Of a stretch of 64,000 bases of DNA, positions 2,483 through 59,906 are shown piece after piece. The stretch comes from Okamejei kenojei (Eukaryota): the NCBI GenBank assembly GCA_035221665.1, contig CM069164.1, positions 15,748,001 to 15,812,000 on the forward strand, written 5' to 3'. Within the stretch, counting starts at the first letter, position 1. Every line of letters begins with the position of its first letter. The position numbers were made by a program, and so were the translations under genes. The notes under the pieces were generated by a model. That model was not told where the DNA came from, ran no database searches, and was given only the letters and a program-made list of their open reading frames with translations.

Positions 2483-2605
<123 letters not shown>

Positions 2606-2819: not shown

Positions 2820-4030
2820 GTAGTGATAGGGGATGCGAAAGTCAGGAGTACAGATAGGTGTTTCTGTGACCATGAGTCTGACTCCAGGATCATATGTTGC
2901 TTCCCAAGTGCCAATATTAAGAGTTAAAGAAGGAACTGCAGATGCTGGAAAATCGAGGGTTTACACAAAAAGCTGGAGAAACTCAGCGGGTGCAGCAGCA
3001 TCTATAGAGAAAAGGAGATAGGCAACGTTTCGGGCCGAATCCCTTCTTCAGTCTGAAGAAGGGTTTCGGCCAGAAACGTTGCCTATGGGTTTCGGCCAGA
3101 AATGTTGCCTATCTCCTTCGCTCCATTGATGCTGCTGCACCCGCTGAGTTTCTCCAGCTTTTTGTGTAAACCCCCAATATTAAGAGTGTCTTGTAACTGA
3201 TACAAGACATTCTGACAGAGGAGGGTGAGCAGCCAGAGGTCATGGTCCATATTGGTACTAACAATATAGGCAGGAAGAGAGATGTGCTTCTGTAAAGTGA
3301 ATATTAGGAGACAGACAGAAGGTTAAAAAATGGGATCTCAATAGTTCTAAAGGTAGTAACAGGAGGATAGGACGAATGAATGACTGAATATTGACTGGAA
3401 CTGCTAAGAAATTAGATGCGATAAAATTTGTTAAGTGAGTCCAAGAAAGTATTCTGAAGCAAAATATAAATGGCCCTACTAGAAAAGGGGCTACCCTCAA
3501 TCTTCTCTCAGGATATGAGGCTGCATGAGTGGTTGGTGTGTGAGTGGAGGTTCACTTTGACAGCAGTGACTATAATTTTATTAATTTCAAGATAGTTATG
3601 GAAACAGATAGGATTGGCCCTGAAGTTGAAGTCCTAAATTGGGGGAAGGCTAATTTCAATAGTATAGGGCCAAAAGTCACAAAAGTTGATTTCGGGAGGT
3701 TGTTTGCACATAAAGGAACTTCTTCAGAATGAACATCTATATGTTATAGTGAAAGACAAAATCCAGGAACCTTGGTTGATGAAGGATATTAAAGGTTAGG
3801 AAAAAGGAGGCATACAACAGGAGCCGGGATCAAGCAAATCCCATGAGGGGATAAGGATGAAGAACACAGGATGGAAATTGGAAGGGCAAAAAAGGGCCAT
3901 GCGATTTCCCTGGCAGATATGATAAAGGAAATCCTAGAAGATTCCAGAGGTATTTTAAGAACAAAAGGGTAGCTCAAGAAAGAGAGTAGGTTTTCTTAAG
4001 CATCAATATGTGTGACTACAGGAACAGAGG
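2820..4030 (+). mobile_element. Old CR1 ORF1 (esterase) and ORF2 N-terminal remnants, interrupted by a Penelope fold-back insert
   Basis: 3220-3264 encodes EGEQPEVMVHIGTNN (CR1 ORF1 SGNH-esterase motif); ORF 3544-3732 has SDYNFINFKI...LNWGKANF (end of the APE endonuclease). Confidence 0.65.
2925..3173. mobile_element. Penelope-like pseudo-LTR in fold-back arrangement (full copy plus inverted partial copy)
   Basis: Arms of ~2958-3050 and ~3052-3173 are reverse complements; CTGAAGAAGGG...GAAACG core; flanked by 14-bp direct repeat ccaatattaagagt at 2911-2924 and 3174-3187. Confidence 0.75.
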
Positions 4031-8965: not shown

Positions 8966-8996
8966 GTCCAGATGGCAGGCAGGAATATTAATAATT

Positions 8997-9249
8997 GGTA
9001 GACAAAAGTGCTGGAGAAACTCAGCAGGTGGGCAGCATCTATGGAGCGAAGGAAATAGGCAACTTTTCGGGCCAAAACCCTTCTTCAGACAGATCTTCTG
9101 AAGAAGGTCAGTCTTCAGTCTGAAGAAGCGTTTCGGCTCGAAACGTTGCCTATTCCCTTCGTTCCATAGATGATGCTGCACCCGTTGAGTTTCACCAACA
9201 CTTTTGTCTACCTTCGATTTTCCAGCATCTGCAGTTCCTTCTTGAACAT
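8997..9249. mobile_element. Second Penelope pseudo-LTR fold-back (inverted partial plus full copy)
   Basis: ggtagacaaaagtgctggagaaactc...cccttcttcagac followed by its reverse complement agtctgaagaag...ttttgtctacc, extending to gcatctgcagttccttcttgaaca; same family as 2925-3173. Confidence 0.75.
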
Positions 9250-9382
9250 ATTTATAACAGGGGAAGGCTCTACCCTTCTTCCACTGTGGCGGGGGGGGGG
9301 GGGGGAGGAGGGAATTGGTGGTCTGTTTCCTGACTAAGGAGGACAAATCGGTCCTGGAGTGGATGGCCTTATCTCACGAACA

Positions 9383-9436
9383 GGGGTGGAAGATTGCAAC
9401 CTTCACGTGGTCCGCCCTGTTTCGACTAATGCAATC
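9383..9436 (+). ncRNA. Minimal HDV-like (CPEB3-type) self-cleaving ribozyme, predicted
   Basis: P1 GGGGTGG (9383-89) pairs with CCGCCCT (9412-18) including the G1-U wobble; P2 GATTGCA (9392-98) with TGCAATC (9430-36); P3 ACC with GGT; L3 TTCACGT; GT after P1; J4/2 C9426-TAA; P4 reduced to TTCGA. Activity is not shown. Confidence 0.8.
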
Positions 9437-9512
9437 AACTCGACGTGCACAAACGGAAGATCAAATAGTTGTCCAACAACTTTGGGCTGTGCACGCCACA
9501 CGAAAGAAGAAG
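9383..9512 (+). mobile_element. Short retroposon with 5' HDV-like ribozyme and (GAA)n tail, copy 1 (intact)
   Basis: 12-bp TSD atctcacgaaca at 9371-9382 and 9513-9524; homologous copies at 20803-20938 and 59771-59906 share the same 5' end. Confidence 0.88.
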
Positions 9513-10283
9513 ATCTCACGAACAGATGCAGGGCAAAATTGAGAGAAAGGGATGGCATCTTTACAAAATATATATTTTGAGAAGGCGTGGTGTAGGTAGC
9601 TGAGGGAATTAGTGGGTTTGTAATAAATAACAGTTTGTGTTCTGTTCAAAGATGGTTTATTATTTTTATTGCATGTGTTTCAAGAGAAAAGCATCTGTCT
9701 GCAATATTCCATTAGAAACCCTAACTCAATACCAGATTATTGATTGTTTTTGAACACTTTGTAAATATAGAGTAATGGGTAGCTGTGGTAGAGCTATGAT
9801 CCAATTCAGGTGCTGTACACCAGTGCTTTCATGGAGAAAAAATATCCAAGGCTCTGAGATAAGATCAGGATTCAGATGTCAATAACAGACCACAAGAGTA
9901 TAGTTTAAGCAGTTCACAAGTGTCTAATTTTTGAGATCATATTGCAGTTTGGAACTCCCAAATAATTTAGCTGTGCTATTGACGTTTTGCTTTTTTGTGA
10001 TATTAAAAAGATTTGAAGACAGAATGAAAACATAATATAGAGGGCAGTAGAGGGCAAAATATATCAAAAGAAATGAGTTAAAGGCTAGCAGAAAAAATGT
10101 GTTTGAGATAAAGTGAATGTGACTGAGATAAGGGAGGACGTATGGAAGAAATCTAGTTGAGGAGCAGAATTGGGACAAAATTAAAAATGCAATCGCATGA
10201 AATGGCCAAATGTGTGAGGTTAGAAATTGCAAGAGCATTGGAAAAAGAATGAGAGCATGGAGAGAAACAAATTGTATTCTTTC

Positions 10284-17709: not shown

Positions 17710-19900
17710 AATGTACAGATGGAAATTATCCTAGCAGATTAAAGGGAGTGACTAATGAAATAATTGATAAATTAGTTTCAATTTTCCAAAACCCCTAGAT
17801 TAAGGGAAGAGTCTATTGAATAGGAAACAAATAAATGTAATAAGGGAGTTAAATGTGTGGCAAAGGAAATCAAATTTGAGCTGTTTGTTGAGGTTCTTTG
17901 ACAATGTAATATCTACAATGGTTATAGGAGAACCAATTAATGTAATAACACAACAAAAAATATTGTGGAAACTAAATGCCCACATACAAGGTAACATGTT
18001 AATGTACAAGATTTGTTGCCTAGCAGTTTACAAGATTGGCTGCCGAGCAGGAAACGGAGAGTAAGCACCAAATGGGCCTTTTACTGCTCAGCAAGATATA
18101 ATGAGAGGGATCAGTGCTACTGTGCCAGCTTATACCATTTTTATAAATGACGATGAAGTCATCAAAGGTATGGTTGCTAAATTTGCTGATGACAGAAAGA
18201 TAAGTAGGAAAGTAAGTTATGGAGAGGATAATTAGATAAAATGAGTTGTCAAGATGTGCCAAGTGGAATACATTTGTGCAAAAATGTGGATTTGTGGATT
18301 TAATAGGAAAGGTAAAAAAAAAGTATATTTAAATAGTGAAAGATTATAGGACTTTCAACTTGTGGTGAGATCTGATTGTACTACTACATGATTAACAAAA
18401 GGCGAGTGCGCAGACGAATTAAGAACTCTGGAAAGCTAACAGATTGTGATTGTTTATTGTGAGCGGATTACCAAATATGGAGATTGTGCTTCAGTTACAT
18501 TGAGCAGTGATGGCACCTTATCTGGAGTACTATGATCAGTCTCCTTATGTAAGAAAAGATGTTTAATATAGAACATAGAATAATTCAGCCCAGGAAAACG
18601 TCCTTTGGCCCATGTTGTCTGTATCAAAGATGGTGCAAATTTAATCTGATCCCCATTGCCTGCACATGATCCATATCCGTCCACTCCCTGCATTTTCAAA
18701 TGCCTATTAAAAAGCCTCTTAAATACCACTATTGTATCTGCTTCCTCCACCACCACTGGCAGTGCATTCTAGGCATCCATTCTCTGTGTAAAAGACTTGC
18801 CCTACACATCCTCTAAAAACTTTCTCGCTCTAATCTATGCCTTCTAGTATTTGATATTTTCATCCTTGGGAAAAATATTCTGACTGTCTACCCTATCTAT
18901 GCCTCTCGTACTTTTACAGATTTCTATCAGGCATCCTTTCAGCCTCTGGAACTTCAGAGAAAATAATCCAAGTTTGTCCAACCTCTTCTAATAACTAATA
19001 CCCTTTAATCAGGCAGCATCCTAGTAAACCTCTTCTGCATTCTGCTGAAAATCTCTACATTCTTCCTGTAAGGGGGTGACTATTTATTGTGTACCATGTT
19101 AATGTCTTGAAAGCTGTTTAGAGAAGATTTATTAAACTAAAATGAGCAGGGTATCTAATAAAACACAGTTTTATAGTCCATAAAAAGTCATACGTTTTAA
19201 CAATGAGAAACTGGACTACAGATCTCAATCCAATCATCTTAGATCATTCTACTACATAGTCTGAAGTAGATGCATTTTGGAATGACTAAATCTGTTGGTT
19301 TATCTTTGGTTTTCTCAAGTTCAAGGTCTCTAACAGAACAATATACTATGCTAGTGTGAGGAATTACAGTGGAAATTCCATATTTGCTGCCTCTGGAACC
19401 CACTGTGCAATATTCCATTCTTAGATTGTTGATGCCCTACCTAGAATGAGCAGGGCATCTAAAGAGGAAAGATTGAACAAGTTGCTTGCATCTGCTGGAG
19501 CACAGGAGTTAGAGGATGCTTGATTTAGCATATAAAATTCAGACAGATCTTGACATAATGGATGTGGAAAGCACGTTCCAGTAAGGATGAGGAATAAGGG
19601 TCCTGACCCAAAACACCACCTTTCCATGTCCTCCAGAGAGACTGCCTGACCGCTGAGTTACCTCAGCACTTTGTGTCCTTCCAAATTTCCAGCGTCCGCA
19701 GTTCATTGTGTTTACATTTTACTGGATGTGGGAGAATCTAGAACAAGGGAAAAATGATTTATTTTGAAAATATAGGTTTACCCATTTAAAAAGGAGAGAC
19801 GATTACATTTTGTCTCTTGTAGTTTTGAATATTTGTAATTTATATACTCAAAGGCCATGGAGGTAGAATCTTAATTATTTTTTAGGTAGATTCAATGGAG
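17710..19900 (+). mobile_element. Old CR1 ORF2 remnant with an opposite-strand CR1 3' end nested at ~18570-19075
   Basis: aaatttgctgatgacagaaag (KFADD) at ~18180; ORF 18454-18756 (-) VVEEADTIVVFKRLFNRH is a CR1 C-terminal motif. Confidence 0.65.
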
Positions 19901-20202
19901 GTGAAAGATGGCATATTTGGCTAACAACAATCTAAGAATGGAATATTGCACAGTGGGTTCACACACTGGGCAGCAAATATGGAATTTCCACTGTAATTCC
20001 TCACACTAGCATAGTATATTGTTCTGTTAGAGACCTTGAACTTGAGAAAACCAAAGATAAACCAACAGATTTAGTCATTCCAAAATGCATCTACTTCAGA
20101 CTCTGTAGTAGAATGATCTAAGATGATTGGATTGAGATCTGTAGTCCAGTTTCTCATTGTTAAAACGTATGACTTTTTATGGACTATAAAACTGTGTTTT
20201 AT
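19158..20202. repeat. ~275-bp near-perfect inverted repeat; arms 19158-19431 and 19925-20202
   Basis: Direct reading: 19158-19391 equals the reverse complement of ~19969-20202 with one mismatch; after a short unmatched patch the match continues 19396-19431 vs 19925-19960. Confidence 0.95.
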
Positions 20203-20802: not shown

Positions 20803-20938
20803 TCTTCTTCTTTCGTGTGGCGTGCACAGCCTAAAATTGTTGGACAACTTGTTCTATTTGATCTTCCGTTTGTGCATGTCGAGTTGATTGCATTAGTCGA
20901 AACAGGGCGACCACGTGAAGGTTGCAATTTTCCACCCC
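20803..20938 (-). mobile_element. HDV-ribozyme-headed retroposon, copy 2
   Basis: Reverse complement reads GGGGTGGAAAATTGCAACCTTCACGTGGTCGCCCTGTTTCGACTAATGCAATC...GAAAGAAGAAGA; TSD gagaaaaatg at 20791-20800 and 20939-20948. Confidence 0.88.
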
Positions 20939-44087: not shown

Positions 44088-47000
44088 AGACAATAGAGAA
44101 TAGGTGCAGGACTAGGCCATTCGGCCCTTCGAGCCAGCACTGCCATTCAACTTGATCATGGCTGATCATCCACAATCAGTACCCCGTTCTCCCCATATCC
44201 CCTGATTCCGTTATCTTTAAGAGCCCTATCTAGCTCTCTCTTGAAAGTATCCAGAGAACCGGCCTCCACCGCCCTCTGAGGCAGAGTATTCCACGGACTC
44301 ACAACTCTCTGTGAGAAAACGTGTTTCCTCGTCCCTGTTCTAAATAGCCTACCCCTTATTCTTAAATGGTGGCCTCTGGTTCTGGACTCCCCCAACATCG
44401 GGAACATGTTTCCTGCCTCTATCGTGTCCAAACCCTTAATAATCTTATATGTTTCAATAAGATCCCCTCTCATCCATCTAAACTCCAGAGTATACAAGCC
44501 CAGCCGCTCCATTCCCTCAGCATATGACAGTCCCACCATCCCGGGAATTAACCTTGTAAACATACGCTGCACTCCCTCAATAGCAAAAATGTCCTTCCTC
44601 AAATTAGGGGACCAAAACTGCACACAATACTGCAGGTGTGGTCTCACTAGGACCATGTACAACTGCAGAAGGACCTCTTTGCTCCTATACTCAACTCCTC
44701 TTGTTATGAAGGCCAACATGCCATTCATTTTCTTCACTGCCTGCTGTATCTGCATGCTTACTTTCATTGACTGATGGACAAGGACCCCCTAGATCCCATT
44801 GTACTTCCCCTTTTCCCAACATGACACCATTTAGATAGTAATCTGCCTTCCTGTCTTTGCTACCAAAGTGGATAACCTCACATTTATCCACATTAAACTG
44901 CATCTGCCATGCATCTGCCCACACATCCAACCTGTCAAAGTCATCTGCATTCTCATAGCATCCACCTCATAGTTCACACTGCCACCCAGCTTTGTGTCAT
45001 CTACAAATTTGGTAATGTTACTATGAATCCCTTCATCTAAATCATTGATGTATATTGCAAATAGCTGCGACCCAGCACCGAGCCTTGCGGTACCTCACTA
45101 GTCACTGTCTGCCATTTTGAAAGGGATCTGTTAATCCCTACTCTTTGTTTCCTGTCTGCCAACCAATTTTCTACCCATGTCAGCACTCTACCCCCAATAC
45201 CATGTGCCCTAATTTTGCCCACTAATCTCCTATGTGGGACCTTATCAAATGCTTTCTGAAAGTCCAGGTACACTACATCCACTGGCTCTCCCTAGTCCAT
45301 CTTCCTAGTTACATTCTCAAAAAATTCCAGAAGATTAGTCAAGCATTATTTCCCCTTCGTAAACCCTTGCTGACTAGGACCGATCCTGTTACTGCTATCC
45401 ATATGTGCCGCTATTTCATCTTTTATAATTGACTCCAGCATCTCTCCCACCACTGATGTCAGGCTATAATTCCCTGTTTTCCCTCTCCCGCCTTTCTTAA
45501 AAAGTAGGATGACATTGCTACCCTCCAATCCACAGGAACTGATCCTGAATCTATAGAACATTGGAAAATTATCACCAATGCACCCACGATTTCTAGAACC
45601 ACTTCCCTAAGTACCCTGGGATTCAGGCTATCAGACCCTGGGGATTTATCAGCCTTCAGTCCCATCAGTCTACCCAACACTATTTCCTGCCTAATGTGGA
45701 TTTCCTTCTGTTCCTCCGTCACCCCAGATTCTCTGGCCACTGGTATATCAGGAAGATTGTTTGTGTCCTCCTTAGTGAAGACAGATCCAAAGTACCTGTT
45801 CAACTCATCTGCCATTTCCTTGTTCCCCACAACAAATTCACCTTTTTCAGTCTTCAAGGGTCCAACTTTGGTCTTAACTATTTTTTTCCTCTTCACATAC
45901 CTAAAGGCTTTTACTATCCTACTTTATATTCTTAGCTAGCTTACCTTTGTACCTCATCTTTTCTCCTCATATTGCCTTTTTAGTTCTGTTGCTCTTTAAA
46001 CATTACCCAATCCTCTTGTTTCCCGCTCATCTTTGCTATATGGTACTTCTCTTTTATTTGTATACTGTCCCTGACGTCCCTTGTCAGCCATGGTCGCCCC
46101 TTACTCCCCTTGGAATCTCTCTTCCTCTTTAAAATTAACTGATCATGCACCTTCTGTATTATTCCCAGAAATACCTGCCATTAATGTTCCACTGTCATCC
46201 CTGCTAGGGTATCTTTCCAGTCAACTTTGGTCAGCTCCTCCCTCATGGTACCATAGTCCCCTTTATTCAACTGTAACACTGACACCTCCGATTTATCCTT
46301 CTCCCTCTCCAATTATAGATTAAACTAGACCATATTATGGTCACTACCTCCTAATGGATCCTTAACCTCAAGTTCCTTTAAAAAATCTGGTTCATTACAT
46401 AACACTAAATCCAGAATTGCCTTCTTCCTGGTAGGCTCCAATACAAGCTGCCACAGCAATACAGAATCCACCACAGAGGCACTCCCTTTCTTGGAGTCCA
46501 GTACCAGCCTGATTTTCCCAGTCTACCTGCATTTTGAAATCTCCCATAACAACTGTAGCATTACCTTTACTACATGCCAATTTTAACTCCTGATGCAACC
46601 TTATATCCAGGCTATTGTTTGGGGGCCAGTAGATAAGTCCCATTAGGGTATTTTTACCCTTACACTTCCTTAGTTCTATCCATACTGACTCCACATCTCC
46701 TGCTTCAATATCACCCCTTGCAAGGGACTGAATTTCATTCCTCACCAACAGAGCTACCTCACCCCCTCTACCCACCTGTCTGTCTTTTTGATAGGAGGTA
46801 TACCCTTGAATATTCAGTTCCCAGCCCTGGCCCTCTTGCAGCCAAGTCTCTGTAATTCCCACAACATCAAACTTGCCAATTTCTAACAGAGCCTCAAGCA
46901 CATCAACTTTATTTCCTATACTTCGCACATTCATATACAACATTTTGACCTCGGTATTCACCTCCCCTCTCGCACCGCTCGCAATTGGTTCTGACCTTGC
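44088..47000 (-). mobile_element. Largest CR1 LINE copy: near-complete frameshifted ORF2 (APE endonuclease plus RT) and 3'UTR
   Basis: ORF 46395-47042 (LYMNVRSIGNK, VVGITETWL, VVMGDF); 45459-45896 (DKSPGSD); 45037-45282 (DVVYLDFQKAFDKVPH, VPQGSVLG); 44156-44767 (LVRPHLQYCVQFWSP). Confidence 0.95.
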
Positions 47001-48469
47001 TCTCTTATCCCTTCTCGAAAATATTGTCGATCCATGTCCCACTGCCTGAGCTGTGGTGTTACTGCAGTACTTTGTGTTTTCGAAAACATTTCAGCATCTG
47101 CAGTTCCTTGTGTCTTGCATTCAGGTCTGTCACTGTTGTGAATATTCACAGTCCCTGACAGTCCAGATCCTGAGCTTCATGTTATGGATTGGATATTGCC
47201 TGTGTGCGATTTATTTTAAAGCAGGTTAACTGTTGCTCACCAGTTCTCTCATGAGCAAGGTCTTGCTCCAGTAGAGGGCTTAAGACAGCTGGAAACTAGC
47301 CTCTGCTATATGGGTTTGAGTGATCACACATAAAAGTAGACACACAGGCAGGCACCACCTGACATCAGCGTATTGCCCACATGACGGCACATGTTTGGGA
47401 ATGTGGACTGACGCCACAGCCAGGGGCGGGAATTTTGGCTTTGGTGTGCAACTGGACGTGGGAACTGGAAAACGGGGTTCAGTATCAGGCTGAATCAAAT
47501 CTGGGGAGCAGGGGAGGTGAAGAGAGAGGCAGTTAACTCAACTACCGATGTCAATGACGGAATAACTTCTCATTTTCCAGAAGCTACCTTTAGATAATGT
47601 CAATTAATCTTTTACTCTTTTCCACATCTTGCCTGCAATGGCATTAAATTAATGGGTTTTAATCTTCTGTATCTTATGTATTATGCTTTGAAAGCAGATT
47701 TTCAAGTAGGAAGACTCCCTCCAGGCCATGTGAACAATTCCATACACTAGTGAACACGGCACAAATTCAATTTCTTTGAACATCCTGGCGATCTGTTTGG
47801 AAAACCTATATTCTAATAGAATTGTGCCTTTCTTCTAATTTGACATTTGCAATTATAGCATAATATCAAAGACAGATTATTGGCAATGCAATGAACATAA
47901 TTAACACAGAAGCATGCATACAGAAAGACAGTACCACTTTAATAACAGACTATTGTTTCCTGTTTAATGGGGGAAATTATTGAACTTAAAATCTATTTGG
48001 TTGAAGGTTGTAGAAAGAGGGCGTTCTGACCTCATGCTCACCAGACATTAACACAATACATCATTAGGTAATCAGCAGGTCTCCCACATGATGACATGGA
48101 CTGCTGTTATTGTCCCTTGTCTGGGGCTCAGTCAGTCTGAAAAACAAATATCTGGGCCTCAACGCAGTTGGACTTATTTTCATCTGCTGGCGGGAATGCT
48201 ACCTGTTGAGAATTGTAAACTCACTGCAGGATTTATTTCCAGATGAATTCAATTTGCATTAATGTCTGATCATTTAATGGCAATTATTTGGAAAGGGAAC
48301 TGCTGCTAAATGATGAGCAGAAAAGCACAGATCGTAAAGCAAATCTTTGTTTTACAGCTACCAGTACCATCATAAACACCTCTCATAACTGCAGCATTTC
48401 AATGAAAACTAACAGCTTACGTTTTTAGTTAATGGAATAATGTATTCTTGATGTTGTGGACTATGAGCT

Positions 48470-50159: not shown

Positions 50160-51355
50160 TTTAATAATAATAATAATAATTTATTTGTCATTCGAACATT
50201 CGAAAAGTATACATTTGAACAAAATGATGTTCCTTTACGGGGCTGAGGTGCAAGGTGCATAGTGGTCGCTATTGATGTACGGTGCAAGTGCAGTGCACGT
50301 GCGTGTTTTAGGTGGGGTGCGTGTGTTCGTTGGGGGGTAGCAGGATGTTCATCATTCTAACAGCTAGGGAAATTAAGCTATTGCACATCCTGGTGGTGCT
50401 GGCCTTGATGCTCCGGTACCTCATGCCGGATGGCAGAGGGGCAAAGAGTCCATGGGAGGTGTATGCTTTCTGTGGTACCTCTACAGAACATAAAGAGGAT
50501 GGGTGGGGGAAGCCTCGCATGTTTCAGCCTCCTGAGGAAGTACAGCCCCTTCTGAGCCCTCCCGGCCAGGTGTGTAGTGTTGAGAGACCAGGAGAGGTCG
50601 TCAGCAAAGTGCACCCCTAGGAATTTGATGTTGTTCACCCTCTCCACGATGGAGCCATTGATGTGCAGGGAGGAGTGGGCAGCCTGCGTTCTCCAGTAGT
50701 CTACAATCATCTCTTTGGTCTTGGTGATGTTCAGAGACAGATTGTTATCTTCGCACCAGTTCACAAGCTGTGCCACCTCCTCTCTGTAGGCAGTCTCAAT
50801 GTTGTCTCTGATGAGGCCCACCACTGTAGTGTCATCTGTAAATTTGATTATTTGGTTGGTGTTGTGTTTGGCGGCACGGTCGAGGATAAGTAGTGTGAAT
50901 AGTGGTGGACTAAGGACACAGCCTCGGGGGGGCTCCGGTGTTCAGGAAGATGATGTTTGTGGTGTTGTTGCCAACATGGACTGACTGGTCGATGTGTTAA
51001 GTCCAGGATCCAGTTGCAGAGGCGGGTATTGAAGCCGAGCAGGGAGAGCTTCCCCACCAGTTTCTGAGAGATGATCGTGTTGAATGCTGAGCTGAAGTCA
51101 ATAAACAGTATTCTAGCGCAGGTGTTTTTTTTTGTTGTCTATGTGGGAGAGGACTGCATAGAGGGTGGAGGAGTTGGCTTTTTCTGTGGAGCGGTTAGGG
51201 CAGTATGACAACTGGTGGGGGTCTAGTGAGGTGGGGTGGTTATTCTTGGTGTGTCCCATGCCTAACCATTTGAAGCATTTCATCACGATGGGGGTCAGTG
51301 CCACGGGACGGTAGTCATTGAGGCAGGAGACAGATTACCTTTTTGGGACCGGTAC
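50160..51355 (-). mobile_element. Rex1/Babar-type LINE RT and 3' end
   Basis: ORF 50378-50824 VGLIRDNIETAYREEVAQLVNWCEDNNLSLNITKTKEMIVD; ORF 51113-51304 [10 protein letters not shown]; short-repeat tail seen as (taa)n at ~50163-50180. Confidence 0.88.
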
Positions 51356-59570: not shown

Positions 59571-59770
59571 TAAAGTTGCCCTGATACATTTGATCCAAGA
59601 TGTGAAATGGGGGCATTGGAAACAGCTCACTCCCAGCAGAGTTCTCGCTGCAAAATTATTGTGCAGCAGGAACAAAAATATTGTATTACTTTTTTTAAAT
59701 GTTATTTTTTCCAAGACATTTAATTTGTGAGTAGATGAACAAGTCAGATAGTAGTTTTATAGATAATACT

Positions 59771-59906
59771 TCTTCTTGTGTATGACGTGCACAGCCTAAA
59801 GTTGCAGGGCAACTTGTTCTATTTGATCTTATTTGTTTGTGCACTCCGGGTTGATTGCATTCGTTGAAACTGGGCGGACCACGTGAAGGTTGCAATCTTC
59901 CACCTC
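59771..59906 (-). mobile_element. HDV-ribozyme-headed retroposon, copy 3 (more diverged)
   Basis: Reverse complement reads GAGGTGGAAGATTGCAACCTTCACGTGGTCCGCCCAGTTTCAACGAATGCAATC...AAGAAGA; imperfect TSD tagataatact (59760-70) and tagttaatact (59908-18). Confidence 0.85.

Follow-up and report, generated by a model that had tools for sequence, protein, structure and literature searches.

The segment at 9383-9436 on the + strand of the window, that is, of the whole 64,000-nucleotide stretch of Okamejei kenojei DNA that was analysed, is quite probably the 5' head of a young retroposon which exists in thousands of copies and likely cleaves itself, freeing the element RNA for copying. The copying machinery is likely an RTE-type LINE. 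The feature is real as a predicted ribozyme and a transposon head, and a SINE-like family of a vertebrate that begins with an HDV-like ribozyme without P4 is a variant within the known ribozyme and retroposon types. The copy resides in a long intron of MEGF11, and no sign of MEGF11 using the insertion was detected.

The predicted ribozyme fold

When both strands were scanned with a descriptor, the window contained a single mismatch-free HDV-like fold, 9383-9436 (+), with all pairs intact. With 100 Markov shuffles of the window, 0 mismatch-free matches and 1 one-mismatch match were obtained. The stems P1 (9383-9389/9412-9418), P2 (9392-9398/9430-9436) and P3 (9399-9401/9409-9411) were paired at 7/7, 7/7 and 3/3 positions, respectively, with a G-U at the cut site, and together form a predicted nested double pseudoknot. 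P1.1 consists of one pair, C9404-G9419, adjoining a U-U. The putative catalytic C is C9426 in J4/2, followed by UAA, or by GAA in an older subfamily. P4 is absent and only 7 nt separate P1 from the catalytic C, which fits the minimal subgroup of PMC10879173. The cut is predicted between 9382 and 9383.

No Rfam family matched at the gathering score. The best sub-threshold match was HDV-F-prausnitzii (RF02682), covering exactly 9383-9436 with 16 bits vs the cut-off of 44 (E 1.1), and the CPEB3 family gave no match to the segment at E<=10. By plain folding, with a model that does not include pseudoknots, the stability was not above that of shuffles (z about 0). The rates of minimal HDV-like ribozymes given in PMC10879173 are 0.002 to 1.7 per minute. 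Pairing of the upstream flank with the 3' strand of P1 and G9419 was considered as an inhibitor and rejected, as the MEGF11 flank ranked 42-96 of 152 in six settings. The RNA contigs from four runs covered only repeats, namely the element (9383-9513) and the neighbouring hairpin repeat; since they miss the unique flanks at 9383, they are uninformative on cleavage. The MEGF11 copy is probably able to cut and to release the element RNA.

Structure, copy number and age of the retroposon family

The retroposon covers 9383-9512 (+), 130 bp, with the ribozyme fold as its first 54 nt and a 3' part (9437-9512, +) that comprises a stem-loop region and a GAA-repeat tail. The 5' target-site duplication, 12 bp or 13 with the shared G at 9383, lies at 9371-9382 (+) and the identical 3' one at 9513-9524 (+). 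The preliminary description of the locus had spanned 9371-9436; positions 9371-9382 are target-site duplication and not ribozyme. The subfamily of the MEGF11 copy lacks 6 nt in the 3' part. Two antisense copies of the same retroposon are present in the window: one at 20804-20938 (-) with a one-base P1 deletion and a P2 mismatch, and one of the older subfamily at 59769-59906 (-) with two P1 mismatches, including the cut-site pair. The copy at 9383 is the only one in the window with every pairing, as had been described, and both others are antisense and damaged.

The 53-nt core (9383-9435) occurred exactly 1,286 times in the 2.76-Gb genome and the tail pattern 6,002 times; the reversed controls resulted in 0 matches in both cases. 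Among 30 copies chosen by the tail alone, 23 aligned from G1, 3 started within 5 nt of it and 4 were shorter, and all pairs and catalytic bases were kept in 9 of the 30. Target duplications of at least 8 nt (median 11) were determined for 174 of 237 near-full-length copies, a set enriched for intact heads, and none for the other 63. The duplication abutted or overlapped G1 in 130 of these 174 copies and ended 1-5 nt short in 44. Common variants of the 54-nt core were found at 2 positions only (8 and 45), both unpaired, and the catalytic C was spared; the 3' part had many more common variants. The copies are nearly identical, and no covariation was seen within the family. Compared with the most frequent letters among the 23 members of its subfamily, the MEGF11 copy has 1 difference which, together with the perfect target duplication, indicates that the insertion is very young.

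Duplications of 8-17 nt, the GAA tail, truncated copies with duplications and the absence of an ORF characterize the family as a non-autonomous non-LTR retroposon. A tRNA-derived SINE was rejected: ARAGORN detected no tRNA gene at the head, which is the ribozyme fold. The family may already be catalogued in repeat databases such as Repbase/Dfam, and a partial literature search gave no report of such a ribozyme in cartilaginous fish. Truncated copies lacking the 5' ribozyme and flanked by duplications were observed at L121, L123, L129, L130, L133, L135, L136, L142 and L144. Their first nucleotides lie at the foot of the 3' stem-loop, a position that the search pattern selected, and they would be an apt control for strand bias. 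A separate palindromic (hairpin) repeat was observed at 8996-9250 and 2949-3181 and at about 266 places in 2 Mb; it lies within the ribozyme element at L101 and L199, at about the same position and with a short duplication.

Relation to an RTE-type LINE

An RTE-type LINE, whose clade we take to be RTE, was located via a Pfam DUF6451 search and ends in the same GAA repeats as the retroposon. One full-length copy, about 3.3 kb long and flanked by an 11-bp duplication, was found at C8, ~65,182,119-65,185,390 (L341:920-1063 with L052), and further copies were observed at L354-L357. The LINE begins exactly with an HDV-like fold of its own, which covers about 144 nt. In 4 of the 5 copies read, P1 was 7/7 paired and opened with a C-G pair, and in the fifth it was 6/7 paired; P3 has two pairs and P1.1 is G-C. 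In the 3 copies where it was located, a P4 region of 87-97 nt precedes the catalytic C and the partner strand of P2. The LINE 5' ends, collected by pattern, started at the first nucleotide in 12 of 16 cases.

The LINE 5' end and the retroposon head have 17 of 19 nt in common across P2/P3/L3. A head match of this level was reached by 2 of 2000 shuffles vs the first 60 nt of the LINE and by 5 of 300 vs the whole LINE; the corresponding values of the 3' match were 0 of 2000 vs the last 150 nt and 22 of 300 vs the whole LINE. The 3' similarity is thus weak and significant only vs the last 150 nt, and the link to the RTE LINE is partial. One P2 pair and the P1.1 pair carry double changes between SINE and LINE with the pairing kept, in a comparison of two lineages only. 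P1 is wholly different in the two, yet paired in both. No longer element or LINE with the exact head or tail was found among the exclusion-pattern matches listed (100 of 116, 47 and 25; 30 + 30 loci read). The related ribozyme, the compensatory changes and the same GAA tail refer to the RTE LINE as the likely partner lineage. We read the retroposon as bipartite and as derived, with loss of P4, from a related RTE lineage, the partner being likely rather than proven.

The host gene and the intron

The MEGF11 EGF-like exon is located at 2508-2600 (+), with the donor GT at 2601 and an intron that runs past the window. A later exon of the gene matched MEGF11-named proteins, with 91% identity to a shark protein, in agreement with a cartilaginous-fish host. 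From 2601 to the next detected exon, at extended coordinate 111,984 and phase compatible, the intron measures 109.4 kb; the exons were treated as consecutive owing to the phase match and because no EGF-like exon was detected between them, the fetched homologues being without this region. The ribozyme lies 6.8 kb into the intron with 102.6 kb (~103 kb) still to the next exon. The preliminary description had placed an intact sense fold about 6.8 kb past the donor in an intron of more than 60 kb, and the descriptor scan and exon mapping agreed with it on both points. MEGF11 contains five copies of the retroposon, of which the copy at 9383 is the sole intact and the sole sense one. The strand skew of the intron is about zero.

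The neighbouring exons resemble what we take, by eye, to be MAP2K1, TIPIN, DIS3L, RAB11A and DENND4A. The same MEGF11 intron holds a degenerate, presumably CR1-like LINE of about 3 kb at 44093-47090 (-) and, at 50381-50941 (-), part of the reverse transcriptase of a different LINE. An inverted duplication at 19158-20202 has perfect arms of 234 nt (~275 nt at 98%) separated by 577 nt. No further match to the arms was found in 2 Mb, which favours a local event over a transposon family. Beyond the window, an old antisense copy of the retroposon (extended coordinate 208465-208593) was observed to stop 6 nt from the donor of a RAB11A-like exon.

Orientation of the copies in genes

The flanks of the copies were fetched without knowledge of the gene context, the repeats were masked, and candidate exons were scored by a model for which 33 local exons had served as the training set. 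The candidate exons sent to Pfam were 238 of the 240 above score 16 and 246 of the 247 weaker ones. Among 279 loci, some of them overlapping, 20 had a host-type Pfam match at E<=0.01; matches to transposon domains were set aside, as was a weak opposite-strand match at L276 (E 0.007 vs 2e-22). The 20 loci held 22 copies, 19 antisense and 3 sense, and with intact copies only the ratio was 16:3 (p 0.004). A further 5 antisense copies, 4 in MEGF11 and 1 in a RAB11A-like gene, came from the surrounding 464 kb of the window. Combined, 24 antisense and 3 sense copies were determined (p 5e-5) with the MEGF11 copy at 9383 excluded as pre-selected, and p was 2e-4 with it included. The orientation bias that the preliminary description had proposed to look for is therefore strong. 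Counting one copy per gene, 19 were antisense and 2 sense. The sense share was about 11% (95% interval 4-28%).

The CR1-like control fragments in 19 of the 20 loci and the 464-kb region were oriented 19:23 (Fisher p 3e-4 vs the retroposon), and two SINE-like controls of arbitrary strand 17:19 and 11:11. An RTE reference control was dropped because a palindromic repeat inside the reference left the counts unoriented. Insertion preference was rejected as the source of the bias: the target-site preference, calculated for the MEGF11 intron sequence only, predicts a sense share of 0.50. Left uncounted, without Pfam support, were the antisense copies at L081, L242, L278 and L319 and the truncated copies at L121 (sense) and L188 (antisense), as were L118, L333 and L072, where the exon candidates are uncertain and, if real, would make the copies sense. 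Since the calls came mostly from a one-sided exon within 5 kb, deep-intron copies are under-sampled.

The strand bias reflects a shortage of sense copies, which is what harm to pre-mRNAs by cleavage would produce, and already hints at in vivo activity of the ribozyme. No paper on a strand bias of ribozyme-bearing elements in introns was found in a partial literature search. Concerning the cutting of the MEGF11 pre-mRNA put forward in the preliminary description, the intact sense fold stands and the 24:3 bias would fit in vivo cleavage, so that cutting is plausible.

The same bias and the fixed 5' ends could also be explained by a fold that is a slow or dead relic in cells, with an internal promoter at G1 setting the 5' end and the bias caused otherwise, e.g., by sense GAA repeats disturbing nearby splicing. 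In L1Tc the same 77 nt serve as promoter and ribozyme (PMC3383444), and some well-folded trypanosomatid ribozymes were inactive in vitro (PMC4035085); in addition, the orientation calls come from copies near exons and MEGF11 evidently tolerates its copy. We regard this explanation as unlikely, as the common core variants are confined to unpaired positions and spare the catalytic C, the SINE-LINE double changes preserve pairing, the head has no tRNA gene, and the GAA tail comprises no more than about 3 units.

Three further intact sense copies were detected, at L199, L275 and L294, so the MEGF11 copy is uncommon and not unique. The L199 copy is positioned 107 nt after a PHD-finger exon and the L294 copy between exons of a MALT1-like gene. 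The copy at L275:4884-5021 (-) is sense to a nearby TRIM-type gene, and may lie upstream of that gene and outside it; its upstream flank was predicted to be fold-blocking (rank 2-5 of 152), which is a single case.

These copies bear on whether MEGF11 has recruited its copy as a regulator of the CPEB3 type, which would tune the output by competing with splicing. Such a role would suit a copy that is intact and sense although only about 11% of the family is sense, that is alone in both respects among the five in MEGF11, and that may cut, its flank not being unusually inhibitory. In a very young copy, however, intactness needs no selection, and the 9 of 30 tail-selected copies were equally intact, besides the three other intact sense ones. 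A regulator of the CPEB3 type would be expected to have a unique, locus-specific sequence, whereas 1,286 cores are identical here; the CPEB3 ribozyme is conserved across mammals (PMC8233481), and the youth of the MEGF11 insertion argues against such conservation. The distance of 102.6 kb to the next exon corresponds to about 25-29 min at the mammalian rate of PMC10919898, compared with 2.5-3 min for CPEB3, and thus lacks the match to the ribozyme half-life that has been described for the 9.9 kb of CPEB3. Co-option is thus very improbable. The tuning of MEGF11 output suggested in the preliminary description is probably wrong, as the bias is a depletion of sense copies, the cores are identical, the copy is young, and 103 kb vs 9.9 kb remain to the exon.

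Discussion

In the preferred reading of a self-cleaving retroposon head, a sense intronic copy would be transcribed along with the host gene, and the transcribed ribozyme would fold and cut before G1. The cut would leave the host pre-mRNA interrupted and give the element RNA a constant 5' end, and the element RNA would then be copied by an RTE protein. The release of element RNA, as the preliminary description supposed, is compatible with the 5' ends of the copies at G1 and with published RTE biology: according to PMC6765202, the ribozymes of RTE elements and SINEs are thought to free the elements from introns or co-transcripts. Selection would remove most sense intronic insertions, and we propose that sense copies are scarce because the host pays with broken pre-mRNA. 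The MEGF11 copy would be a recent survivor which probably cuts a fraction of the MEGF11 transcripts as a tolerated cost and could serve as a source copy. According to Fong 2009, cited in PMC10919898, an intronic ribozyme abolishes splicing when it is fast but not when it is slow. With 25-29 min to the acceptor, a half-life of minutes would cut most MEGF11 transcripts first. That the copy has survived points to cleavage that is slow or partial, to a rescue of splicing, or to an insertion too recent for removal.

The CPEB3 ribozyme contains P4, and MEGF11 is a gene with a neural role, as is CPEB3. The MEGF11 copy resembles the mammalian CPEB3 ribozyme in the HDV-like fold, the weak P1.1 (PMC13635239) and the sense position in an intron. 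In contrast, the CPEB3 ribozyme is conserved, lies 9.9 kb before the next exon (PMC10919898) and has a measured effect, whereas the MEGF11 copy is young and 103 kb from the exon.

Bipartite non-autonomous RTE elements and SIDEs (RTESINE, WALLSI3, RTE-N2_Lch; R2 SIDEs; NARTc/RIME), as described in PMC5786205 and PMC6765202, are likewise short, without an ORF, and consist of a LINE-like 5' head with an HDV-like ribozyme and a 3' tail between target duplications. The retroposon described here differs in being only 130-138 bp, in having a ribozyme without P4, and in that the resident RTE LINE is a relative and not the direct parent. With the minimal HDV-like ribozymes (drz-Mtgn, theta ribozymes), as described in PMC10879173, it shares a length of about 54 nt, the absence of P4, the G1 cut site and the catalytic C. 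Those are nearly all from gut phages and located beside tRNAs, whereas 9383-9436 heads a vertebrate retroposon with more than 1,000 identical copies.

The family may be read further still: a P4-less SINE-like family would have seeded thousands of working ribozymes, selection would have purged its sense intronic copies by about 8 to 1, and the few that survive in sense, including the MEGF11 copy, would be new host-gene attenuators, i.e., CPEB3-like control at birth. We consider this quite unlikely, and the family-level pattern is more interesting than the MEGF11 copy, which alone is probably incidental. With the family, a P4-less ribozyme described mainly from phages is now placed in a vertebrate retroposon. 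The cutting of genomic HDV-like ribozymes in cells and the cost of an intronic cut have so far been tested at few loci, and more than 1,000 identical cores in differing flanks, introns and orientations constitute a natural experiment.
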